Assembly (NCBI RefSeq): GCF_988243305.1
Contig: NZ_OZ547136.1
Direction: 5' to 3' (one strand)
Length of the DNA stretch: 64,000 nucleotides
Shown here: in pieces, positions 32,523 through 50,338 of the stretch
Numbering within the stretch: the stretch's first letter is position 1
How the letters are laid out: every line of letters begins with the position of its first letter
Program-made: the position numbers and the translations under genes
The notes under the pieces: model-generated
What the model was told of the DNA's origin: nothing
The model's input: the letters and a program-made list of their open reading frames with translations, nothing else
Databases searched by the model: none

Positions 32523-33611
32523 ATGAACAACCGGGAGAAGGAGATCCTTGCAATTTTACGGCGTAACCCGCTGATTCAGCAGAACGAAATTGCGGATATG
32601 CTGCAAATCAGCCGTTCGCGCGTTGCGGCGCATATTATGGATTTAATGCGCAAAGGCCGGATTAAAGGCAAAGGTTACATTCTCACCGAGCAGGAATACT
32701 GCGTAGTGGTGGGGACAATCAATATGGATATTCGCGGGATGGCGGATATCCGTTACCCGCAAGCGGCTTCTCATCCCGGTACCATTCATTGCTCGGCAGG
32801 CGGCGTTGGACGCAATATCGCCCACAATCTGGCGCTGTTAGGCCGCGACGTCCATTTGCTTTCAGTGATTGGCGATGACTTTTATGGCGAAATGCTCCTG
32901 GAAGAAACGCGCCGCGCCGGCGTGAATGTCTCCGGCTGCGTTCGTTTACATGGCCAAAGCACATCGACGTATCTGGCAATTGCCGATCGAGACGATCAAA
33001 TCGTGCTGGCGATTAACGATACCCATCTGCTGGATCAGTTGACACCGCAACTACTGAACGGGTCGCGCGATTTACTTCGTCATGCGGGCGTGGTACTGGC
33101 TGATTGCAACCTGACAGCCGAGGCGCTGGAGTGGGTCTTTACCCTCGCTGATGAAATCCCGGTGTTTGTCGATACCGTTTCAGAATTCAAAGCGGGCAAA
33201 ATCAAACACTGGCTGGCGCATATTCACACCCTGAAACCCACTTTACCGGAGCTGGAAATTTTATGGGGACAGGCGATCACCAGCGATGCTGACCGTAATG
33301 CCGCAGTGAATGCGTTGCATCAGCAAGGCGTTCAGCAACTGTTTGTTTATTTGCCCGATGAGTCTGTTTATTGCAGCGAAAAGGATGGAGAACAATTTTT
33401 GCTGACAGCGCCAGCGCATACGACAGTAGACAGTTTTGGTGCTGACGATGGTTTTATGGCGGGCCTGGTATATAGCTTTCTGGAGGGAAACAATTTCCGT
33501 GACAGCGCCCGTTTTGCGATGGCCTGCGCGGCAATTTCACGCGCCAGCGGCAGCTTAAACAACCCTACCCTGTCTGCCGATAATGCGCTGTCATTAGTGC
33601 CAATGGTGTAA
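32523..33611 (+). CDS. yeiI: PfkB-family carbohydrate/nucleoside kinase with N-terminal winged-helix DNA-binding domain
   Basis: 362-aa product; N-terminus MNNREKEILAILRRNPLIQQNEIADMLQISRSRVAAHIMDLMRKG, then ribokinase-like domain. Confidence 0.9.
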   Translation: MNNREKEILAILRRNPLIQQNEIADMLQISRSRVAAHIMDLMRKGRIKGKGYILTEQEYCVVVGTINMDIRGMADIRYPQAASHPGTIHCSAGGVGRNIAHNLALLGRDVHLLSVIGDDFYGEMLLEETRRAGVNVSGCVRLHGQSTSTYLAIADRDDQIVLAINDTHLLDQLTPQLLNGSRDLLRHAGVVLADCNLTAEALEWVFTLADEIPVFVDTVSEFKAGKIKHWLAHIHTLKPTLPELEILWGQAITSDADRNAAVNALHQQGVQQLFVYLPDESVYCSEKDGEQFLLTAPAHTTVDSFGADDGFMAGLVYSFLEGNNFRDSARFAMACAAISRASGSLNNPTLSADNALSLVPMV

Positions 33612-33616
33612 CAATG

Positions 33617-33652
33617 TTGCCGGATTCGACGCTTGACCGCATCTAATCCGGC
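33617..33652. repeat. Palindromic element between yeiI and nupX
   Basis: ttgccggattcgacgcttgaccgcatctaatccggc imperfect inverted repeat. Confidence 0.5.
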
Positions 33653-33666
33653 TCATAAATTGCACA

Positions 33667-34917
33667 CTACGCTAAACCAATAAAGAACCCGGCAATGGTG
33701 GCACTCATCAGATTAGAAAGTGTCGCCGCCGCCAGCGCGCGTAAACCAAGCTGGGCGATTTCCGGCGCACGGTGTGGCGCAACCGCAGAAAACGCCCCCA
33801 CCACCACCCCGATAGAACCAAAGTTAGCGAAACCGCACAACGCGAAAGAAATAATCGCCACGGTTTTAGCATCCAGAGTGCCAGCTGTTTGCAGATAAGG
33901 TGAGAAATTGAGGTAAGCGACAAATTCATTAATCGCCAGTTTCTGTCCAATCAAACTCCCGGCAAGATTCGCATCACTCCAGTCAACCCCCATCACCCAC
34001 GCCAGCGGGGCCAGCAGGTAACCTAAAATGGACTCCAGCGAGGCATGTTCAAAACCAAACCAGCCGCCAACGCCGCCGATAATACCGTTAATTAACGCAA
34101 TGATGGCGACAAATGCCATCACTACTGTCGCCACACCTGCGGCGATTTTCAGCCCGGTCATTGCCCCTGTAGCGGCGGCTTCAATAATGCTTTTTGGCGG
34201 TGTTTCGGTGAAAGAGAGGTTATTAAAGGAAACCTGCGAAGATTCGGTAGCCGGGCTTAACAGGCGGGCAAACAAGATCCCGCCAGGGATCGCCATTAAC
34301 GATGCCGCCAGCAGATATTCCACAGGCACGCCCAGTGCAGCGTAACCAATCATTGTCGAACCAGCAATCGAGGCCATGCCACTACAAATCGCTGTAAATA
34401 ATTCATTGCGATTCAGCCGATCGATAAAGGGTTTGACGATTGCCGGAATTTCGTTTTGCCCGAGGAAAATGGTAGTGACCGCGACGAATGACTCGATCTT
34501 GCTGATATTTAATGCTTTCTGGAAGATACCGCCGAGAATGCGAATTAAGATCCCCATCACACCGATGTAGTAGAGAATACTCACCAGTGCTGTAACGAAG
34601 ATAATTGCCGGTAATACCCTGAAACCAAAGATAAATCCTGCGCCATCAAATAAGGTATCCATTTTCGGTCCGACCAGAGAACCAAAGATAAATGCGCTAC
34701 CTGCATCGCTGTACGCCATCACTTTATGCACGCCAAAAGCGACTTTTTCTGCGACCCAACGCCCTGGTGGTAACCAAAGCATAATGCCGCCAATCACGAC
34801 CTGTAACACTAACGCCGCGCCAACGGTACGCAGGCTGATCTTCTTCTTGTTTACTGACAGCAAAAACGCAATTGCCAGTAATACCACCATTCCCAGAACA
34901 CTTCTCATGACATCCAT
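33667..34917 (-). CDS. nupX: Concentrative nucleoside transporter (CNT/NupC family)
   Basis: 416-aa product MDVMRSVLGMVVLLAIAFLLSVNKK...; close paralogue of psuT in this window. Confidence 0.9.
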   Translation of the reverse strand: MDVMRSVLGMVVLLAIAFLLSVNKKKISLRTVGAALVLQVVIGGIMLWLPPGRWVAEKVAFGVHKVMAYSDAGSAFIFGSLVGPKMDTLFDGAGFIFGFRVLPAIIFVTALVSILYYIGVMGILIRILGGIFQKALNISKIESFVAVTTIFLGQNEIPAIVKPFIDRLNRNELFTAICSGMASIAGSTMIGYAALGVPVEYLLAASLMAIPGGILFARLLSPATESSQVSFNNLSFTETPPKSIIEAAATGAMTGLKIAAGVATVVMAFVAIIALINGIIGGVGGWFGFEHASLESILGYLLAPLAWVMGVDWSDANLAGSLIGQKLAINEFVAYLNFSPYLQTAGTLDAKTVAIISFALCGFANFGSIGVVVGAFSAVAPHRAPEIAQLGLRALAAATLSNLMSATIAGFFIGLA

Positions 34918-35016
34918 AGTTATTATCTCTTCATGTCATTTTGGGCGACGGCTTTCTGCCCATCAGAAATAGCCGGGCCTGCATCTTGCGATACTGTCCC
35001 GGCTTGTTATCAACAC

Positions 35017-35958
35017 TTAATGGGTTTTGATGTAGCCGCGCACGCACTCTTCGACTAATCCCCAGAACCAGTCGGTATCAATAGTGATGCCGACTTTGGT
35101 ATTGGCGGGCTTGCCAAGAACGCCCAGCTCGTCGCAGACGGTACGCCCATAGCAAGGGCCACTGTTAACGTCCACGTCGACGTACATCTCCTGGGTTTTA
35201 ATGCCATCAGGGTTAATCAGATAACCGATGCAGGTGGCGTCATGCACCGGGCCGCCAGCAAGGCCGTAGTTTTCGAACTGCGTTTTGAGAGTGAAGTTCA
35301 TGATGTCGCTGAACAGCTCTCCGGCGGGGCCGCCTGCCCTTTCCATCCGTGCAATCACGTCCGGGGTGCAAACGGTCTGGTTGGTGAGATCGAGGCCCAT
35401 CATCACTAATGGAACGCCGGAGGTGAACACCACGCGTGCCGCTTCCGGGTCAGCAAAGATGTTGAACTCGGCGGATGGCGTAAAGTTGCCAGTACCGTAA
35501 GCGCCGCCCATCAGCACAATTTCACGGATTTTCGGCAGGATCGCGGGTTGCATACGCATTGCCACCGCGATGTTTGAAAGTGGACCAACCGGCACCAGAG
35601 TGATATCGCCATCGCTTGCCATCAGGGTATCGATGATATATTTCACCGCATGAGTGCTTTCTGCCTGGCGGGTCAGCGGCCCGAATACCGGGCCATCAAG
35701 TCCGGTTTCACCGTGAATATTATCGGCAACGATTTGTTGACGCATAATGGGCTGTGGCATCCCCGCATAAACCGGAACATTAATCTCCAGTTTCTGGCAA
35801 ACATTCAGGCCATTAATTAATGTTTTATCGAGGGTTTGATTACCCGCTACAATGGTGATACCTAATAAATCTATTGCCGGATGTTTCGCTGCCATCATTA
35901 TTGCAATAGCATCATCATGACCCGGATCACAATCCAGGATAATTTTTCTTTTTTCCAT
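35017..35958 (-). CDS. rihB: Pyrimidine-specific ribonucleoside hydrolase
   Basis: 313-aa product [27 protein letters not shown]... (IU-nucleoside hydrolase DxDxxxDD motif). Confidence 0.95.
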
Positions 35959-36126
35959 TGTTTATTTCCTCTGTTTCCAGTTGCGTTATTTTTTCTACAG
36001 CAAAGAAAATTCGACCGGGCCGATGATTGAATCTTAACAACAGCGTACGTATGCTAAATATGAGAAATCTCATAGCGGATAAACATCGTGAAAGAAATCC
36101 ACAATAATGATCTTAAGCAGCAATTG

Positions 36127-36786
36127 ATGAGTGAATCAGCGTTTAAGGATTGCTTTTCAACGGATGTTTCAGCCGATACGCGGCTGTTTCATTTTTTAGC
36201 GCGTGACTACATTGTGAAGGAAGGGCAACAGCCGTCCTGGCTGTTTTACCTGACGCGAGGCCGCGCCAGGCTTTACGCCACGCTTGCTAATGGTCGCGTG
36301 TCGCTGATCGATTTCTTTGCCGCGCCCTGTTTTATTGGCGAGATTGAGTTAATCGATAAAGACCATGAACCGCGTGCGGTGCAGGCTATTGAAGAGTGTT
36401 GGTGTCTTGCGCTCCCTATGAAACATTACCGCCCGCTGTTATTAAACGACACACTATTTTTACGAAAACTCTGCGTTAGTTTAAGCCATAAAAATTATCG
36501 CAATATTGTTTCTTTAACTCAGAATCAATCATTTCCGTTAGTGAATCGCCTGGCAGCTTTTATATTACTCTCACAAGAAGGTGATCTTTATCACGAAAAG
36601 CATACGCAAGCGGCAGAGTATTTAGGCGTTTCTTATCGACATCTTTTATATGTTCTCGCGCAATTCATTCACGACGGTTTATTAATTAAAAGCAAGAAAG
36701 GATATCTAATTAAAAACAGAAAGCAGTTGTCAGGACTGGCGCTGGAGATGGACCCGGAGAATAAATTCTCCGGGATGATGCAGTAA
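36127..36786 (+). CDS. yeiL: CRP/FNR-family transcriptional regulator
   Basis: Product [37 protein letters not shown]..., cNMP-binding-like domain plus C-terminal HTH; 219 aa. Confidence 0.85.
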
Positions 36787-36807
36787 AAAATAATCTGCAA
36801 TAGCACG

Positions 36808-36849
36808 ATTGCCGGATGTGACGCTTAATAAGCGCGTACATCCGGCAAT
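36808..36849. repeat. Palindromic REP-like element between yeiL and psuT
   Basis: attgccggatgt...acatccggcaat inverted repeat. Confidence 0.55.
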
Positions 36850-36854
36850 GACAC

Positions 36855-38105
36855 TCAAGCTAAACCAATAAAGAACCCGGCAATGGTCGCGCTCATCAGG
36901 TTGGAAAGCGTTGCTGCTGCCAGCGCCCTTAAACCAAGCTGAGCGATTTCCGGAGCACGTTTTGGCGAAATAGCCGAAAATGCCCCAACGACAACACCGA
37001 TAGAACCAAAGTTAGCAAAACCACAAAGCGCAAAGGAGATAATCGCAATGGTTTTCACTTCCAGCGTGCCGCCCGTTTGCAGGTATGGGGAGAAACTCAG
37101 GTAAGCGACGAATTCGTTAATCGCCAGTTTCTGCCCAATCAGGCTACCCGCAAGGTTGGCATCACTCCAGTCCACACCCATGATCCACGCCAGCGGTGCC
37201 AGCACATAGCCAAAAATACTTTCCAGAGAGGCATTGGCGAAACCAAACCAGCCGCCAATTCCGCCGATAATGCCGTTGATCAGCGCAATAATTGCGACAA
37301 ACGCCATTACCACCGTCGCTACACCAGCGGCGATTTTCAGCCCGGTCATCGCACCGCTCGCCGCCGCTTCGATAAAGCTTTTTGGCGGCGTTTCGCTGAA
37401 CGACAGATTTTCAAATGTCACCTGCGAAGGCTCGGTGGCTGGGCTAAGAATACGTGCAAACAAAATACCACCAGGGATCGCCATCAGCGATGCCGCTAAC
37501 AGGTAGTCAATTGGTACGCCCATTCCGGCATAACCAATCATCATCGAACCAGCAATGGACGCCATCCCGCTACAAATTGCGGTAAACAACTCGTTGCGAT
37601 TCATGCGATCGATAAACGGTTTAACGATCGCAGGGATCTCATTTTGCCCGAGGAAAATAGTGGTAACCGCAACAAAAGATTCGATTTTGCTGATGTTGAG
37701 GGCTTTCTGGAAAATGCTGCCAAGGATGCGGATTAGCAGCCCCATCACGCCAATGTAGTACAGCAGGCTGATGAGCGCAGTGACGAAGATAATCGCCGGG
37801 AGTACGCGAAAGGCGAAGATAAAGCCCGCGCCATCAAACAGGACATCCATTTTCGGCCCGACCAATGAACCAAAAATAAAGGCACTACCGGCATCACTGT
37901 AAGACATCACTTTATGAACGCCTAATGCCGCCTGCTCTACCGCCCATTTTCCTGGTGGAAAATAGAGCATGATGCCGCCAATGGCGATTTGTAGCAGCAG
38001 CGCGGCTCCAACCGTGCGCAAACTGATGCTCTTTTTATTCACTGACAACAAAAATGCTATTGCCAGTAACACCACCATCCCCACAACACTTCTCATTATA
38101 TCCAT
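36855..38105 (-). CDS. psuT: Putative pseudouridine/nucleoside transporter (CNT family)
   Basis: 416-aa product MDIMRSVVGMVVLLAIAFLLSVNKK...; paralogue of nupX. Confidence 0.9.
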   Translation of the reverse strand: MDIMRSVVGMVVLLAIAFLLSVNKKSISLRTVGAALLLQIAIGGIMLYFPPGKWAVEQAALGVHKVMSYSDAGSAFIFGSLVGPKMDVLFDGAGFIFAFRVLPAIIFVTALISLLYYIGVMGLLIRILGSIFQKALNISKIESFVAVTTIFLGQNEIPAIVKPFIDRMNRNELFTAICSGMASIAGSMMIGYAGMGVPIDYLLAASLMAIPGGILFARILSPATEPSQVTFENLSFSETPPKSFIEAAASGAMTGLKIAAGVATVVMAFVAIIALINGIIGGIGGWFGFANASLESIFGYVLAPLAWIMGVDWSDANLAGSLIGQKLAINEFVAYLSFSPYLQTGGTLEVKTIAIISFALCGFANFGSIGVVVGAFSAISPKRAPEIAQLGLRALAAATLSNLMSATIAGFFIGLA

Positions 38106-38198
38106 AATGATTTTCCCTTCATGCCAGTAAACCCGGCGTCAGCGCCAGGTTTTGGTATGTATGATCAGTACGGGCGACGGCTTTCTGCCCGTCAGAAA

Positions 38199-39137
38199 TT
38201 AACCCGCGAGACGCTGGTATTCTTTGGCAATTTCACTCGCCAGAATGGCGTTGTTGAACACCAGTTGGATGTTGGATTTCAGGCTGTCACCGCCAGTCAG
38301 TTCAGCAACACGAGCCAGCAGGAACGGTGTGCTTTCTTTACCAATAACGCCCTGCTCTTCGGCTTCGGCAACGGCTTGATCTATGGCTGCATTGATAGAT
38401 TCCTCCGGCATCGCAAACTGTTCCGGGATCGGATTTGCCACCACCAGGCCACCGTTCAGCCCGCTTTGCCATTTCACCGCCATTGCATGGGCAATTTCAC
38501 TGGCGCTGTCGAGACGAATACTGACGTCAAACGGGCTGGTACGGCAGAAAAACGCAGGCAGCGCTTTGGTCTGATAGCCAATTAACGGCACACCGAAGGT
38601 TTCTAAATACTCAGTGGTTAATCCTAAATCGAGAATAGATTTCGCCCCGGCACAAACAACGGTGACATTAGTATTTGCCAGTTCTTGCAAATCGGCAGAA
38701 ATATCGAAGGTATGTTCCGCCCCGCGATGCACACCACCAATTCCCCCTGTGGCAAATACTTTAATTCCGGCAAGCGCCGCAATAATCATCGTTGAAGCAA
38801 CGGTAGTTGCGCCATTTTTTCCGGCGGCAACAACAAAAGGTAAATCGCGACGACTAACTTTGGTCACGTTATGCCCTTCACGACCCAGCAATTCAATTTC
38901 TTCTTTGCTTAAACCCACTTTCATCACGCCGCCAATAATGGCGATAGTGGCAGGTACAGCGCCCTGTTTACGAATAGTTTCTTCAACTTCAATTGCGGTC
39001 TGGGCATTTTGTGGGAACGGCATCCCGTGAGAAATAATGGTCGATTCCAGCGCCACAACCGGTTTTTTGTTTTTTAAAGCGTCCTGCACTTCCGGGGAAA
39101 TTTGTAATAATTCAGGGGAAATTTTTAATTCAGACAT
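38199..39137 (-). CDS. psuG: Pseudouridine-5-prime-phosphate glycosidase
   Basis: 312-aa product MSELKISPELLQISPEVQDALKNKKPVVALESTIISHGMPFPQN... Confidence 0.95.
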   Translation of the reverse strand: MSELKISPELLQISPEVQDALKNKKPVVALESTIISHGMPFPQNAQTAIEVEETIRKQGAVPATIAIIGGVMKVGLSKEEIELLGREGHNVTKVSRRDLPFVVAAGKNGATTVASTMIIAALAGIKVFATGGIGGVHRGAEHTFDISADLQELANTNVTVVCAGAKSILDLGLTTEYLETFGVPLIGYQTKALPAFFCRTSPFDVSIRLDSASEIAHAMAVKWQSGLNGGLVVANPIPEQFAMPEESINAAIDQAVAEAEEQGVIGKESTPFLLARVAELTGGDSLKSNIQLVFNNAILASEIAKEYQRLAG

Positions 39138-40066
39138 TCTGCGTTCTCCACTAACGATATAACGTTGGCAATCGATAAATCGGGGTTATTGGTGTATTCA
39201 CAGGAGAGCGCCATTGACGAACATCCCTGTGCGAAACGAACAGATTCGGCAAACGGCATTCCGTCTACCCAACACGAAGCAAGCCCCGCCATCATGGCAT
39301 CGCCCGCTCCGGTAACATTAATAACATTGGTTTTGATCGGCGCAGACCAGCCACTTTCACCGCTGATATCACTGTAATAAACGCCATCGCCGCCCATGCT
39401 CAATACCAGTCGGTTCAGGCCATGTTGATGGAACCAGGCAGCAACTTTTGCCACATCTTCACGCCCTGACAGCGCAATCCCACTCAGGGTTTCCGCTTCA
39501 AGGCGGTTTGGCTTGAGAGTGTGGATTTGATTTAGACGGTCGCGCACTTTGACACATTTCCATGCGGAAACCGGATCGACAAATACGGGTACGTTGGCGG
39601 CATTATCCAGAATCCATGCCAGTGCCTCTTCACTGATATTACAGTCTGCGACAATGACCTTTGCCCTCTGAATAAATTCACGGTGCTGTGCGAGATATTC
39701 AGCTGTAATAGCGTTGCTAATATTCATGTCATTTATAGCAACCAGCATTTCACCGGTATTATCGAGTAATGATAAATAGCTTGACGTATTTTCTCCCGGC
39801 ACAATCAGGCATTTATCGACATAAACGCCAGATTGATTGGTTTGCGTTAGCAGCGATTGACCATAAAAATCACTGCCTACGGCGCTCAGTAGCCAGGCTT
39901 TGTTCTCCAGCAACGCCAGGTTTTGTGCAATATTGCGCCCGACTCCACCAGGCGTAAATTTTATTTTACCTGGATTTGAATCCGCATAATTTAATGATTC
40001 ATGTGAATATCCGGCGACATCAATATTCGCCGAACCTATAATTACGACATAATCCTTTTCGCGCAT
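39125..40066 (-). CDS. psuK: Pseudouridine kinase (PfkB family)
   Basis: 313-aa product MREKDYVVIIGSANIDVAGYS...; 13-nt overlap with psuG. Confidence 0.95.
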   Translation of the reverse strand: MREKDYVVIIGSANIDVAGYSHESLNYADSNPGKIKFTPGGVGRNIAQNLALLENKAWLLSAVGSDFYGQSLLTQTNQSGVYVDKCLIVPGENTSSYLSLLDNTGEMLVAINDMNISNAITAEYLAQHREFIQRAKVIVADCNISEEALAWILDNAANVPVFVDPVSAWKCVKVRDRLNQIHTLKPNRLEAETLSGIALSGREDVAKVAAWFHQHGLNRLVLSMGGDGVYYSDISGESGWSAPIKTNVINVTGAGDAMMAGLASCWVDGMPFAESVRFAQGCSSMALSCEYTNNPDLSIANVISLVENAECLN

Positions 40067-47015: not shown

Positions 47016-48482
47016 ATGAATACAATCGCCTCCGTTACGCTCCCGCATCATGTACACGCTCCACGCTACGATCGCCAGCAGTTGCAATCACGTATCGTTC
47101 ATTTTGGCTTTGGAGCCTTTCACCGCGCACATCAGGCGTTACTGACCGATCGTGTGCTGAATGCCCAGGGCGGTGACTGGGGGATCTGTGAAATCAGCTT
47201 GTTCAGCGGTGATCAACTGATGAGCCAGCTCCGCGCACAGAACCATTTATATACCGTGCTGGAGAAAGGGGCGGACGGCAATCAGGCGATAATTGTCGGT
47301 GCCGTTCACGAATGCCTTAATGCAAAACTGGATTCCTTAGCGGCAATTATTGAGAAATTTTGCGAGCCACAGGTGGCAATTGTTTCCCTGACGATTACCG
47401 AAAAAGGCTATTGTATTGACCCGGCCACCGGTGCACTCGACACCAGCAATCCGCGGATTATTCACGATCTACAAAACCCTGAAGAACCTCACTCCGCGCC
47501 GGGTATTCTCGTCGAAGCACTGAAACGACGCCGTGAACGCGGCCTTGCACCGTTTACCGTACTCTCCTGCGACAATATTCCCGACAATGGCCATGTGGTG
47601 AAAAACGCGGTGCTGGGGATGGCGGAAAAACGTTCACCAGAACTCGCCGGGTGGATAAAAGAACACGTCAGTTTTCCGGGAACCATGGTCGACCGTATTG
47701 TTCCGGCAGCAACCGACGAATCACTGGCGGAAATCAGCCAGCATCTGGGGGTGAATGATCCCTGCGCGATTAGCTGCGAACCGTTTATCCAGTGGGTGGT
47801 GGAAGATAACTTCGTCGCTGGGCGTCCTGCCTGGGAAGTCGCAGGTGTACAAATGGTGAATGATGTCCTGCCATGGGAAGAGATGAAACTGCGTATGCTT
47901 AATGGCAGCCACTCTTTTCTCGCTTATCTGGGTTACCTCTCAGGATTCGCCCATATCAGTGATTGCATGCAGGATCGCGCATTTCGCCATGCCTCCAGAA
48001 CATTAATGCTGGATGAGCAAGCGCCAACACTGCGAATTAAAGATGTCGATTTAACACAATATGCGGATAAGTTAATTGCACGTTTTGCTAATCCGGCGCT
48101 GAAACATAAGACCTGGCAAATCGCAATGGATGGTAGCCAGAAATTACCGCAACGCATGCTGGCAGGTATTCGCATACATCTGGGGCGCGAAACGGACTGG
48201 TCGATGCTGGCATTAGGCGTTGCAGGCTGGATGCGTTACGTCAGCGGCGTTGATGATGCCGGAAATGCCATTGATGTTCGCGATCCGCTTAGCGATAAAA
48301 TTCGCGAACTTGTTGCGGGCAGTAGCAGTGAACAACGCGTAACCGCCCTGCTTTCCCTGCGTGAAGTTTTCGGTGATGATCTGCCAGATAACCCGCATTT
48401 TGTGCAGGCTATCGAACAAGCCTGGCAACAAATCGCACAATTCGGCGCGCATCAGGCGCTATTAAACACCCTCAAAATTTAA
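47016..48482 (+). CDS. yeiQ: Mannitol-dehydrogenase-family oxidoreductase
   Basis: Product MNTIASVTLPHHVHAPRYDRQQLQSRIVHFGFGAFHRAHQA...; 488 aa. Confidence 0.9.
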   Translation: MNTIASVTLPHHVHAPRYDRQQLQSRIVHFGFGAFHRAHQALLTDRVLNAQGGDWGICEISLFSGDQLMSQLRAQNHLYTVLEKGADGNQAIIVGAVHECLNAKLDSLAAIIEKFCEPQVAIVSLTITEKGYCIDPATGALDTSNPRIIHDLQNPEEPHSAPGILVEALKRRRERGLAPFTVLSCDNIPDNGHVVKNAVLGMAEKRSPELAGWIKEHVSFPGTMVDRIVPAATDESLAEISQHLGVNDPCAISCEPFIQWVVEDNFVAGRPAWEVAGVQMVNDVLPWEEMKLRMLNGSHSFLAYLGYLSGFAHISDCMQDRAFRHASRTLMLDEQAPTLRIKDVDLTQYADKLIARFANPALKHKTWQIAMDGSQKLPQRMLAGIRIHLGRETDWSMLALGVAGWMRYVSGVDDAGNAIDVRDPLSDKIRELVAGSSSEQRVTALLSLREVFGDDLPDNPHFVQAIEQAWQQIAQFGAHQALLNTLKI

Positions 48483-48599
48483 CGATTTCTGCGGTTAAAG
48501 CGGATGAAGCTCGCCTTCGTCCGCTCCCCCCTTCTCTTTTCTGCCTTTTTTAGCCAGGATTAACGCTCAGTTAACTTTTAAGAGTATTGCGGAGCCGTT

Positions 48600-49586
48600 G
48601 TGACCAGGACCAACCTCATCACCGGTTTTCTCGGCAGCGGGAAAACTACGTCGATTCTTCATCTTTTAGCCCATAAAGATCCCAACGAAAAATGGGCGGT
48701 ACTGGTTAATGAATTTGGGGAAGTCGGAATTGATGGTGCTTTGCTCGCCGATAGCGGCGCATTGCTGAAAGAGATCCCCGGCGGCTGCATGTGCTGCGTT
48801 AATGGTTTACCCATGCAGGTAGGGTTGAATACCTTACTGCGTCAGGGAAAACCAGACCGCTTGTTGATAGAGCCGACCGGACTGGGTCATCCGAAACAGA
48901 TCCTAGATCTCTTAACCGCGCCCGTGTATGAACCGTGGATAGATCTGCGCGCCACGTTGTGCATTCTCGATCCACGCCTGCTGCTGGACGAAAAAAGCGC
49001 CAGCAATGAAAACTTCCGTGACCAGCTGGCTGCCGCAGACATTATTGTCGCCAATAAATCCGACCGTGCGACGCCCGAAAGTGAGCAAGCGCTACAGCGC
49101 TGGTGGCAGCAAAATGGTGGCGATCGGCAATTAATTCACAGCGAGCATGGGAAAATTGACGGTCATCTTCTGGATTTGCCGCGTCGCAATTTAGCCGAGT
49201 TGCCCGCCAGCGCCGCACATTCTCATCATCATAGCGTGAAAAAAGGGTTAGCAGCGTTAAGCCTGCCAGAGCATCAACGCTGGCGTCGCAGTCTGAACAG
49301 CGGGCAAGGATATCAGGCCTGCGGCTGGATATTCGACGCTGATACGGTATTCGACACCATTGGCATTCTGGAATGGGCGCGACTTGCATCGGTAGAACGC
49401 GTCAAAGGCGTGCTGCGTATTCCCGAAGGGCTGGTGCGAATCAACCGTCAGGGCGATGACCTGCACATTGAAACGCAAAACATTGCGCCACCGGACAGCC
49501 GTATTGAGCTGATTTCCAGCAGCGAAGCTGACTGGAATGCCTTGCAGAGCGCGCTGTTGAAGCTTCGTTTAGCGACTACCGCGTAA
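48600..49586 (+). CDS. yeiR: COG0523/CobW-family GTPase (putative zinc metallochaperone)
   Basis: 328-aa product with GTG start; GFLGSGKTT P-loop and GCMCC motif. Confidence 0.9.
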   Translation: MTRTNLITGFLGSGKTTSILHLLAHKDPNEKWAVLVNEFGEVGIDGALLADSGALLKEIPGGCMCCVNGLPMQVGLNTLLRQGKPDRLLIEPTGLGHPKQILDLLTAPVYEPWIDLRATLCILDPRLLLDEKSASNENFRDQLAAADIIVANKSDRATPESEQALQRWWQQNGGDRQLIHSEHGKIDGHLLDLPRRNLAELPASAAHSHHHSVKKGLAALSLPEHQRWRRSLNSGQGYQACGWIFDADTVFDTIGILEWARLASVERVKGVLRIPEGLVRINRQGDDLHIETQNIAPPDSRIELISSSEADWNALQSALLKLRLATTA

Positions 49587-49624
49587 GGTTGCCTGCGTTT
49601 TTCAGTAAGATAATTAGAGAAAAT

Positions 49625-50338
49625 ATGATTAAAAATTTGCCGCAAATAGTGTTGTTGAATATTGTCGGCCTCGCGCTGTTTCTTTCCTGGTATATACCCG
49701 TTAATCATGGATTCTGGTTGCCGATTGATGCGGATATTTTTTATTTCTTTAATCAGAAACTGGTCGAAAGTAAGGCCTTTTTGTGGCTGGTTGCATTGAC
49801 CAACAATCGCGCTTTCGACGGTTGTTCACTGCTGGCGATGGGAATGTTGATGCTGAGTTTCTGGCTGAAAGAACACGCCCCAGGCAGACGACGTATCGTG
49901 ATTATTGGTCTGGTCATGCTATTAACTGCAGTGGTATTAAACCAGCTGGGTCAGGCATTAATTCCTGTAAAACGGGCCAGCCCAACATTGACTTTTACCG
50001 ATATTAACCGCGTCAGCGAACTGCTCTCTGTTCCCACGAAAGATGCCTCACGAGATAGCTTTCCCGGCGATCACGGTATGATGCTGCTTATTTTTTCGGC
50101 ATTCATGTGGCGTTATTTCGGCAAAGTTGCAGGCCTTATCGCCCTTATTATTTTTGTGGTTTTTGCGTTTCCCAGAGTAATGATTGGCGCACACTGGTTT
50201 ACTGACATCATTGTCGGTTCGATGACCGTGATATTGATCGGTTTGCCCTGGGTGTTGCTGACGCCATTAAGTGATCGATTAATCACCTTTTTTGACAAAT
50301 CACTACCGGGAAAAAACAAACATTTCCAAAACAAATAA
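49625..50338 (+). CDS. lpxT: Lipid A 1-diphosphate synthase (undecaprenyl-pyrophosphate phosphotransferase)
   Basis: Product MIKNLPQIVLLNIVGLALFLSWYIPVNHGFWLPIDADIFYFF..., PAP2 family; 237 aa. Confidence 0.9.
   Translation: MIKNLPQIVLLNIVGLALFLSWYIPVNHGFWLPIDADIFYFFNQKLVESKAFLWLVALTNNRAFDGCSLLAMGMLMLSFWLKEHAPGRRRIVIIGLVMLLTAVVLNQLGQALIPVKRASPTLTFTDINRVSELLSVPTKDASRDSFPGDHGMMLLIFSAFMWRYFGKVAGLIALIIFVVFAFPRVMIGAHWFTDIIVGSMTVILIGLPWVLLTPLSDRLITFFDKSLPGKNKHFQNK

Follow-up and report, generated by a model that had tools for sequence, protein, structure and literature searches.

Rare deletion of rihB and yeiL by fusion of the tandem transporter paralogs nupX and psuT in Escherichia coli

Do two transporter genes that lie a few kilobases apart on the same strand, and have diverged to 79% nucleotide identity, still recombine with each other in nature and delete the genes between them? 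The question is raised by nupX and psuT in a 64,000-nucleotide stretch of DNA (hereafter the window; contig NZ_OZ547136.1, RefSeq assembly GCF_988243305.1), to which all coordinates refer. An initial annotation had described the two genes as same-strand, equally long direct repeats about 3.2 kb apart with closely similar proteins. It predicted that homologous recombination between them would delete rihB and yeiL and leave a chimeric transporter gene, which would make the locus a plausible hotspot of structural variation.

The geometry is as described. nupX (33667-34917) and psuT (36855-38105) are both minus-strand open reading frames of 1251 nt (416 aa). They align in register and without gaps over 1251 of 1251 nt, of which 992 are identical (79.3%), and their products share 88.5% of residues. 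The start-to-start spacing is 3188 nt. Both copies are members of the NupC/CNT family of concentrative nucleoside transporters, with matches to TIGR00804 over profile positions 1-401 of 401 at 500.2 bits (nupX) and 517.6 bits (psuT), above the curated cutoff of 442 bits. nupX forms the distal copy; psuT is the proximal copy and the last gene after psuK-psuG. Between the repeats lie the ribosylpyrimidine nucleosidase gene rihB (35017-35958, minus strand; NF007417, 724 bits) and yeiL (36088-36786, plus strand; NF007707, 418 bits), which encodes a CRP/FNR-family regulator. The pair is framed by yeiI on the left (32523-33611, plus strand; HTH and PfkB sugar kinase) and psuG on the right (38199-39137, minus strand).

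Compared in register, the sequences flanking the two genes are unrelated (14-35% identity). nupX and psuT are long direct repeats, colinear over their full length on one strand. The homology reaches into the upstream leaders, where a 35-nt block at 34936-34970 (minus strand) has its partner upstream of psuT at 38165-38199, offset by a 41-nt indel. This block contains the motif TTTCTG-N5-CAGAAA and marks how far upstream the duplicated unit extends; a comparison with Rfam gave no match. At the other end, similarity runs about 20 nt beyond the stop codon in some lineages. The yeiI-nupX spacer (33612-33666) holds a REP-like element. It is 55 nt long in the window and 106 nt long in K-12-type lineages; in the latter, the portion next to the stop codon is of the type found downstream of psuT. 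The yeiL-psuT spacer (36787-36854) also holds a REP-like element, and in K-12 its stop-proximal type is swapped with that of the nupX spacer. Neither transposase genes nor terminal inverted repeats were found at the repeat ends; the repeated unit is simply the transporter gene. Insertions of IS1 and ISKpn26 at the locus are sporadic and confined to individual strains.

nupX and psuT are ancient tandem CNT paralogs (dS ~1.3), both under purifying selection, with 46, 19 and 194 differences at the three codon positions. Their divergence is uneven: identity in 100-nt windows ranges from 0.71 to 0.86, with the top values toward the 3' ends, and dS is 0.87 in the 3' 40% and 1.7-1.9 in the rest. Recombination by RecBCD and RecA reportedly depends on a minimal efficient processing segment (MEPS), which is ~23-27 bp. 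The longest perfect runs shared by the window alleles are 29, 23, 20, 19, 17 and 17 nt, and other lineages have identical tracts of up to 36-38 nt.

To look for the predicted product, we surveyed 5,426 complete E. coli genomes. In five of them (strains SY019, E203449, 11PC, CFSAN004176 and EH10-18-47) one intact hybrid gene of 1251 nt lies between yeiI and psuG; its 3' part derives from nupX and its 5' part from psuT. rihB and yeiL are absent from all five (loci L001-L005). The yeiI-psuG gap has shrunk to ~1.4 kb, namely 1399 nt, or 1450 nt where the lineage carries the additional 51-nt spacer. Exactly one repeat period is thus missing and one in-frame hybrid is left, as in a Lepore-type ectopic deletion. 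The hybrid proteins match the Pfam domains Nucleos_tra2_N, Gate and Nucleos_tra2_C. Altogether, eight genomes lack rihB-yeiL, of which five are the paralog fusions and at least two are IS-mediated. Low or patchy nucleotide identity had been named in advance as an argument against recombination at this locus; the identity is indeed low and patchy, with longest runs of 20-29 nt, and the recombination products exist nonetheless. In the literature, we found no earlier description of recombination at the nupX/psuT locus.

The parentage of the hybrids can be read with precision. At 149 fixed sites, where no base is common to any nupX and any psuT allele, they show one clean switch from nupX to psuT and no reversals, and a single parental switch along the gene was seen in all 25 hybrid genes examined. 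Breakpoints were mapped with a 13/15-allele panel together with these fixed differences. Breakpoints drawn from the window alleles alone were discarded; they gave false 'psuT-like' 3' ends in three strains, because the 3' ends have been swapped between the paralogs in a lineage-specific manner. Locus L019, whose 1269-nt nupX is homopolymer junk in its assembly, was left out. Parents were found by matching flank protein accessions, as whole deletion loci used as queries ranked poorly when homeologous overlaps distorted the mean identity. Three of the complete-genome hybrids and the draft fusions L021 and L023, together four haplotypes, are recombinants of intact relatives' alleles without a single mismatch, and these relatives carry the same flank proteins.

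Among the five complete genomes, several are WGS records at chromosome level (CM accessions), which might point to paralog collapse during sequencing or assembly; alternatively, a single hybrid gene might be the ancestral state. Both ideas are exceedingly improbable. Separate projects have yielded many independent assemblies, of isolates and of metagenomes, with identical hybrids in the fusion context; copies at 79% identity are not collapsed by assemblers, and synthetic reciprocal junctions used as controls match nothing. We therefore rejected an assembly artefact. An ancestral hybrid was likewise rejected, since the nupX and psuT segments of each hybrid match lineage-specific alleles found in its intact relatives.

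The deletion has arisen repeatedly. The junction differs in each of the five complete fusion genomes; with draft and metagenome assemblies included, the number of junction classes rises to six and more haplotypes appear. Dozens of independent assemblies, from isolates and from metagenomes, encode the same hybrid proteins, with 9 to more than 24 independent contigs per hybrid. This amounts to at least six junction classes and roughly 9-10 distinct fusion haplotypes, with 5 of 5,426 complete genomes affected. The prevalence of fusions is ~0.1% of genomes; with 79% identity, unevenly spread, and perfect runs of 20-29 nt at most, such events are rare. The mechanism put forward in the initial annotation is thus confirmed; its 'hotspot' holds only for the recurrence of independent events and overstates their frequency.

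A much larger class of shorter loci has a different origin. In about 18% of genomes (973 records, mainly with B2-type alleles) the repeat pair is missing, as an unrelated internal deletion has removed nupX. The class of shorter loci (~980 records), which at first sight resembles another paralog-mediated event, is this internal nupX deletion with a 3-nt microhomology.

Where do the crossovers fall? Listed from the 3' end of the gene, class 1 lies at 33716-33720 (partner 36904-36908; offsets 49-54) and is represented by strain 11PC, whose hybrid is a zero-mismatch recombinant of panel alleles and encodes a protein identical to PsuT. Class 2, seen in L021 and L023, falls within 33809-33828 (partner 36997-37016), the 20-nt identical tract CCGATAGAACCAAAGTTAGC. 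Class 3 at 33830-33834 (partner 37018-37022; offsets 163-168) is found in E203449 and identical draft assemblies, and class 4 at 33941-33953 (partner 37129-37141; offsets 274-287) in CFSAN004176 and at least 24 further contigs. Class 5 at 33971-33993 (partner 37159-37181; offsets 304-327) occurs in EH10-18-47 and others. Its tract is identical over 23 nt in K-12-type alleles and over 14 nt in the window, and the hybrid is a zero-mismatch recombinant of K-12 nupX and K-12 psuT. Class 6 at 34139-34161 (partner 37327-37349; offsets 472-495) uses the 23-nt identical tract GCGGCGATTTTCAGCCCGGTCAT and is a zero-mismatch recombinant of the alleles of the intact locus L017. Three haplotypes have their junction in this tract; they are distinct from one another to its left and right within the gene, as well as in each flank.

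The junction intervals thus measure 5, 5, 13, 20, 23 and 23 nt and lie in identical tracts that are at or below the MEPS. All six classes fall at offsets of 495 or less, which corresponds to the 3'-terminal 40% of the gene, or the C-terminal 165 residues of the protein (P ~0.004). Three of the six use tracts of at least 20 nt, which cover at most 10% of the gene (P ~0.015). No junctions were found at the universally conserved 17-nt tract at offset 787 or at the 19-20-nt tracts at offsets 385 and 610; therefore, tract length alone does not predict where a junction forms. Chi sites are ruled out as the cause of the 3' bias, as the locus contains none.

Gene conversion without crossover, which the initial annotation had not considered, also affects the two genes. 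In ten complete genomes of the ABWA45/ST536/0H lineage, nupX carries an internal psuT-type patch of 103-131 nt with nupX-type sequence on both sides. The patch spans offsets 162-264 and includes nine consecutive fixed sites of psuT type (offsets 162-216), so that this nupX and the psuT of the same genome are identical over a 131-nt tract. Conversely, the psuT of locus L022 carries a nupX-type patch at offsets 64-161, which yields a 98-nt identical tract. The class 2 tract edges both patches. In addition, the extreme 3' ends are swapped between nupX and psuT in a manner that varies by lineage. Alongside these footprints, dS is about halved in the 3' region.

How might the deletions and patches come about? 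Very probably, a single process accounts for all of them: old, diverged paralogs in direct repeat recombine ectopically and give rise to deletions, a hybrid gene and conversion patches. In natural E. coli populations, nupX and psuT would occasionally pair out of register as homeologous direct repeats. A crossover, by intrachromosomal pop-out or unequal sister-chromatid exchange, would then remove exactly one repeat period, made up of the 5' part of nupX, rihB, yeiL and the 3' part of psuT. One in-frame hybrid with a psuT 5' end and a nupX 3' end would remain to close the psuK-psuG operon. When the same pairing ends without a crossover, conversion patches would be left in either gene. As to the enzymology, RecA-dependent homeologous recombination seeded at a few perfect tracts of 13-38 nt would be the most likely route. 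That junctions are limited to the 3' 40% would be due to the greater identity of the copies in this part, and selection for a protein that is mostly PsuT may add to the effect.

Some observations run counter to this explanation, namely the 79% identity with window runs of 20-29 nt, at or below the MEPS for RecBCD/RecA, and the low frequency of ~0.1%. A reciprocal duplication, with three CNT genes and rihB-yeiL present twice, was sought with synthetic junctions at the tracts 472-495 and 142-162, and neither of these two found a match above 92.8% in the 5,426 genomes. Intrachromosomal pop-out would not be expected to yield such a duplication, and duplications in tandem are unstable.

The two 5-nt junction intervals could also be explained by slippage or template switching. 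Might all of the deletions then have arisen by RecA-independent replication slippage or template switching at microhomologies of 5-23 nt, for which extended homology is unneeded? The shortness of all six intervals would fit, and the B2-type nupX deletion at 3 nt demonstrates that microhomology-mediated deletion does occur at this locus. We nevertheless regard this route as unlikely. All events are exactly in register (3188 nt) and preserve frame and gene length, whereas most deletions at random microhomologies would miss the register. A patch with a boundary on each side would need heteroduplex or a double template switch. Moreover, RecA-independent deletion is said to fall steeply with repeat separation and to be inefficient at ~3 kb.

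The conversion patches raise a second possibility, in which the deletion takes two steps. Conversion would first copy the 3' region between the paralogs and create ~100-500 nt of perfect identity; ordinary recombination within this identity would then delete the interval, and the apparent junction would be the old conversion boundary instead of the crossover site. This would explain why all junctions are at the 3' side, where conversion footprints and reduced dS are found, and intact converted loci do exist, such as that of the ABWA45 lineage with its 131-nt tract, although this patch matches none of the observed fusions. The edge of the L022 tract (offset 161/162) coincides with the junction of fusions L021 and L023, and L021 is a zero-mismatch recombinant of K-12 nupX and the L022 psuT; L022, however, is a single draft assembly (GCA_029471425.1) and one of 14 contigs carrying that protein. 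In L038, an intact locus of the L017 lineage, psuT is of nupX type at offsets 36-471, which ends at the tract used by the L001 fusion, and the converted gene is 1 nt from the L001 fusion gene. Yet L038 is a short metagenome scaffold (ERZ28644420), and the swapped segment begins and ends precisely at the two longest shared tracts, as could also result from a 'bubble swap' in a de Bruijn graph. No complete genome has a converted, intact locus that matches junction classes 5 or 6. Two steps are therefore conceivable, though not what we favour. We are more doubtful still that deletion proceeds mainly via a converted intermediate, in which short conversions anchored at selectively frozen tracts of 20-38 nt would create 100-500 nt of identity and license efficient RecA-mediated deletion. 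If so, the junctions would be fossil conversion boundaries, L022 and L038 would be intermediates caught in nature, and conversion frequency, rather than identity as such, would set the rate of deletion between old paralogs.

The locus constitutes a naturally replicated record of ectopic recombination at 79% identity, with several independent deletions, junctions resolved to the base pair, known parental alleles and conversion patches in both directions at the same place. Set in K-12, it offers a convenient natural and experimental system for studying how far sequences can diverge and still recombine, and how this limit depends on short identical tracts, on mismatch repair and on earlier conversion. 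There are also practical consequences. In strain comparisons and pangenome tools, rihB and yeiL will appear 'accessory' and hybrids will be mis-called nupX or psuT; PGAP gives the hybrid genes no name. The hybrid transporters carry between 0 and 15 NupX-type residues within a PsuT background. Uridine and cytidine are weakly transported by NupX but not by PsuT (PMC11241209), so the hybrids are ready-made chimeras for mapping substrate specificity.

In laboratory crosses, homeologous recombination is reportedly limited by the MEPS and by mismatch repair. In line with this, nupX/psuT junctions are enriched in the longest perfect tracts (20-23 nt) and are rare, as expected at ~20% divergence; unlike the products of such crosses, they are natural variants. 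The babA/babB genes of Helicobacter pylori are likewise paralogous membrane-protein genes that form intragenomic chimeras as part of natural strain variation. The bab loci differ in that they are dispersed, undergo mostly conversion with phase-variation-like functional effects, and lose no intervening genes.

Conversion and recombination are also reported for tufA and tufB of Salmonella and E. coli, and for rrn operons and rhs elements. As in tuf, non-reciprocal conversion acts between chromosomal paralogs, and its footprints keep part of nupX/psuT more similar than expected, as seen in the dS gradient. The tuf genes are ~99% identical, far apart and inverted, so that conversion dominates and a crossover produces an inversion. 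In contrast, nupX and psuT, at 79% identity, are direct repeats separated by 3.2 kb; a crossover produces a small deletion, and the two copies are homogenised only weakly and locally.

Close parallels are also known from humans. Haemoglobin Lepore (the delta-beta fusion), the alpha-globin -alpha3.7 deletion and the red/green opsin hybrids arise by unequal crossover between tandem paralogs that leaves one hybrid gene. The bacterial, haploid nupX/psuT case differs from these in its 79% identity, compared with more than 90-99% in the human homology boxes, in its crossover tracts of at most 23 nt, and in that no reciprocal 'anti-Lepore' product was observed at the two tracts tested. The likeness lies in the rest: direct paralogs a few kilobases apart exchange in register, the intervening DNA is lost, one in-frame hybrid takes its promoter-proximal part from the upstream copy, and the fusions recur independently with differing breakpoints. 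Taken together, the nupX/psuT fusions are a clear but rare case of a well-known process.

nupX (33667-34917, minus strand) and psuT (36855-38105, minus strand) are both open reading frames of 416 codons and encode full-length NupC/CNT transporters (TIGR00804, 500 and 518 bits; cutoff 442 bits). The initial annotation described them as same-strand direct repeats of equal length, and this holds: the reading frames lie at exactly the coordinates it gave, and in an ungapped, in-register alignment 992 of 1251 nucleotides (79.3%) and 88.5% of residues are identical. They enclose rihB (35017-35958, minus strand) and yeiL (36088-36786, plus strand); yeiI (32523-33611) and psuG/psuK lie outside the pair, and the flanks of the two genes are unrelated. 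Identity per 100-nt window ranges from 0.71 to 0.86, with its maximum toward the 3' ends, and the longest perfect runs measure 29, 23, 20, 19, 17 and 17 nt. Differences fall at codon positions 1, 2 and 3 in the numbers 46, 19 and 194, with a dS of 1.27 and a dN/dS of ~0.06. The repeats are thus real but old. In a panel of reference alleles taken from varied intact loci (13 of nupX, 15 of psuT), the two paralogs of any one strain are always 77-80% identical.

Recombination between the two genes had been predicted to delete rihB-yeiL and to leave a chimeric transporter gene. This product exists in five of 5,426 complete E. coli genomes. The genomes were searched with yeiI and psuG joined head to tail, and two matches were merged into one place only if at most 1.6 kb apart, so that only genomes without the ~3.2-kb interval rank as full-length. 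SY019, E203449, 11PC, CFSAN004176 and EH10-18-47 did so, and in each the RefSeq annotation shows one intact 1251-nt CNT gene between yeiI and psuG, without rihB or yeiL. The yeiI-psuG gap is 1399 nt, exactly 4587 minus 3188, or 1450 nt in lineages with a 51-nt-longer yeiI-nupX spacer. By exact-protein look-up, the hybrid proteins were located on 14, 9, at least 24 and 15 contigs. These come from isolate and metagenome projects unrelated to one another, and the great majority show the fusion order psuK-psuG-hybrid-yeiI; an assembly artefact is thereby excluded as their source.

At 149 fixed sites, no base is common to any nupX and any psuT allele of the panel. Across these sites all five fusions switch once and cleanly from nupX-type (3') to psuT-type (5'), with zero reversals and each at a different position. 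Offsets are counted here in window orientation from the 3' end of each gene. Parent matching found exact parent pairs for three of the five. The SY019 hybrid is reproduced with 0 mismatches by recombining the two alleles of strain 2017C-4173W12, with which SY019 also has its yeiI, psuG, psuK, fruA and nfo proteins in common; a 23-nt identical tract at offsets 472-495 (window 34139-34161 and 37327-37349) contains the crossover. For EH10-18-47 the 0-mismatch parents are K-12 nupX and K-12 psuT, joined within a 23-nt tract at offsets 304-327. The 11PC hybrid, likewise without mismatch, switches at offsets 49-54 and therefore encodes a protein identical to PsuT (WP_000353878.1). In E203449 (offsets 163-168) and CFSAN004176 (274-287) the nupX side is matched perfectly; most of the mismatches left in the psuT part correspond to known psuT polymorphisms, and CFSAN004176 carries two substitutions private to it. 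A sixth junction class is formed by two further loci (L021 and L023), exact K-12-type recombinants in a 20-nt tract at offsets 142-161. Three haplotypes carry the 472-495 junction; between them, the sequence on either side of it differs by 30-41 nt, yeiI by 11-20 nt and psuG by 26-32 nt. The junction near offset 304 is found in two or more backgrounds. In total, we count six junction classes and about 9-10 haplotype-distinct fusions.

Paralog exchange has also occurred without deletion. A 221-nt query centred on a fusion junction matched, besides the fusion strain, ten complete-genome records of one lineage: ABWA45, two ST536 mussel records, six of the 0H series (0H15-0H26) and 2021CK-01361. 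Here the locus is intact, and nupX is psuT-type at nine consecutive fixed sites (offsets 162-216), giving 131 nt of perfect identity with the strain's own psuT, a pseudogene with a stop at codon 48. This patch is a classical conversion in the direction psuT to nupX. The opposite direction is seen in draft GCA_029471425.1 (L022), whose psuT carries a nupX-identical patch at offsets 64-161. Both patches have an edge at the 20-nt tract at 142-161, where one fusion class also has its junction; the junction of another class lies directly beside it. A metagenome scaffold (L038) resembles an intact locus of the lineage (L017) that donated the alleles of the SY019 fusion, with psuT offsets 36-471 nupX-type. 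As the ends of this segment coincide exactly with the two longest tracts that the genes share, it may be a real conversion or, equally, an assembly 'bubble swap'.

The spacers downstream of both genes (33612-33666 and 36787-36854) contain REP-like elements (TTGCCGGATGCGACGCTT...). Together with the stop-proximal gene ends they come in two types, a and b, which have been swapped between the paralogs among lineages (nupX/psuT: a/b in the window, b/a in K-12, b/b in the donor lineage L017). In the window the yeiI-nupX spacer is 55 nt long; in K-12-type lineages it reaches 106 nt, and the extra 51 nt resemble window sequence downstream of psuT. Paralog dS is 0.87 in the 3' 40% of the genes and 1.7-1.9 elsewhere. 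The end swaps and the lower 3' dS support long-term local homogenisation of the 3' region.

The data thus show that the paralogs exchange sequence in register, both by crossover, which deletes the interval and leaves a hybrid gene, and without crossover, which leaves patches. We infer that these exchanges would most likely arise by RecA-mediated homeologous recombination seeded at rare identical tracts. In favour of this route, none of the events departs from exact register, patches bounded on both sides imply heteroduplex, and the longest tracts are enriched for junctions: half of the junctions fall in tracts of at least 20 nt, which cover at most 10% of the gene (P ~0.015). Template switching at microhomology, independent of RecA, would be compatible with the 5-nt junction intervals, but hardly explains the strict register and the 3.2-kb spacing. 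Alternatively, conversion might first create 100-500 nt of perfect identity, within which recombination is then efficient. Boundaries of patch and fusion coincide in L022 and L021, and in L038 and SY019, which supports such a two-step route, but the two intermediates rest on one draft and one metagenome assembly. Identical tracts at offsets 385, 610 and 787 never served as a junction, so tract length alone is insufficient to set junction location. All junctions are confined to the 3'-terminal 40% of the genes, at offsets 0-495 (P ~0.004 if uniform), and the hybrids differ from PsuT at only 0-15 of 49 paralog-distinguishing residues. This bias may reflect the higher local identity (82% versus 77%) or selection for a mostly-PsuT protein, which is conceivable because the substrate profiles of NupX and PsuT differ (PMC11241209). 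A scan of the whole window found 17 Chi sites (GCTGGTGG), with about 2 expected from shuffles, and none between 29957 and 40551, leaving the nupX-psuT locus Chi-free. Such an excess over shuffles is usual for E. coli.

Eight complete genomes lack rihB-yeiL altogether: five through paralog fusion, at least two through insertion sequences (IS1 in ET734, ISKpn26 in TUM2820) and one without the entire region. Paralog recombination is thus the leading cause of this loss among complete genomes. The proposed hotspot stands as far as events recur, but at a prevalence of ~0.1% of genomes 'recurrent' fits better than 'hot'. For the two tracts used most often, synthetic queries representing the reciprocal junction (psuT-type followed by nupX-type) gave no match above 92.8%; no tandem-duplication product is therefore seen at these tracts, and the junction-query method is specific. 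nupX is present at ≥95% identity in about 4,440 records. In 973 records (~18% of complete E. coli genomes) the nupX probe matches only psuT, at about 78.7%, and these therefore lack nupX. In this class (e.g. ST131 uk_P46212, A0 34/86) a 1,136-nt internal deletion with 3-nt microhomology (window 33716-34850) has spared just 49 nt at the 3' end of the gene and 67 nt at its 5' end (L006 2290-2556 compared with L016 1390-2794), an event unrelated to psuT. GN06667 carries the flank alleles of this class, yet its nupX is intact.

The nucleoside-utilisation cluster frequently decays independently in E. coli genomes (L008, L009, L014, L018, L040-L045): IS1 lies inside nupX in 210205630, and in rihB and between psuG and psuK in 2017-19-1CC; psuT has internal stops in NIPH17_0036 and the ABWA45 lineage; O111:H8 combines a nupX internal stop with a yeiI frameshift; and TUM2820 has a psuG internal stop. 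A 1269-nt nupX annotation in NZ_CP067342.1 (L019) was rejected as spurious, stemming from assembly error: the nupX 3' end and spacer of this 'complete' genome (L019 2600-2905) are made up of extended low-complexity and homopolymer stretches (poly-C, poly-A/T).

A block (34936-34970 and 38165-38199, minus strand) recurs in the intercistronic leader of each transporter gene, upstream of the coding sequence; its 28-nt core, TTTCTGAYGGGCAGAAAGCCGTCGCCC, contains the palindrome TTTCTG-N5-CAGAAA. The core is nearly invariant across lineages, far more conserved than the coding sequence (79%), and has no Rfam match. Compared with shuffled sequences, each of the leaders folds better (z = -2.7 and -2.9), and the core may be an operator or RNA element common to the rihB-nupX and psuKG-psuT units. 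yeiI (HTH plus PfkB kinase) is a paralog of psuK (39125-40066) and scores 261 bits against a pseudouridine-kinase model, which yields two parallel sets, yeiI/rihB/nupX and psuK/psuG/psuT, each with a kinase, a glycosidase/hydrolase and a CNT transporter.

The window's locus is identical to none of the 5,426 complete genomes (best match GMF065, 98.6%), and compared with the B2-type locus it displays a deep allelic dimorphism within one species. Identity is only 68-88% in yeiI and 85-92% in psuT-psuG (36855-39137; psuT dS 0.60), versus 93-99% in nupX-rihB-yeiL (33667-36786), with boundaries at the two REP-containing spacers. This pattern suggests introgression or a separate history of flanks and central cassette. 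Six plasmid records also matched the rihB-yeiL and transporter probes. Plasmid NZ_CP173464.1 (H100; 64.9 kb; strain 98228) carries a CNT transporter-psuG-psuK cluster at 48048-50307 that is only 77% identical to the chromosomal one and presumably comes from another species.

No paper on recombination, fusions or conversion at nupX/psuT turned up in full-text literature searches, and the pair could be used as a model locus. The fusions are a functional bacterial counterpart of the Lepore-type and -alpha3.7-type unequal crossovers between tandem paralogs, and the patches parallel interparalog conversion of the tufA/tufB type. Recombination at this locus operates in the homeologous range that laboratory work on MEPS and mismatch repair has defined. 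nupX/psuT does not represent a new type of system, but it is a clean natural case that is well resolved.
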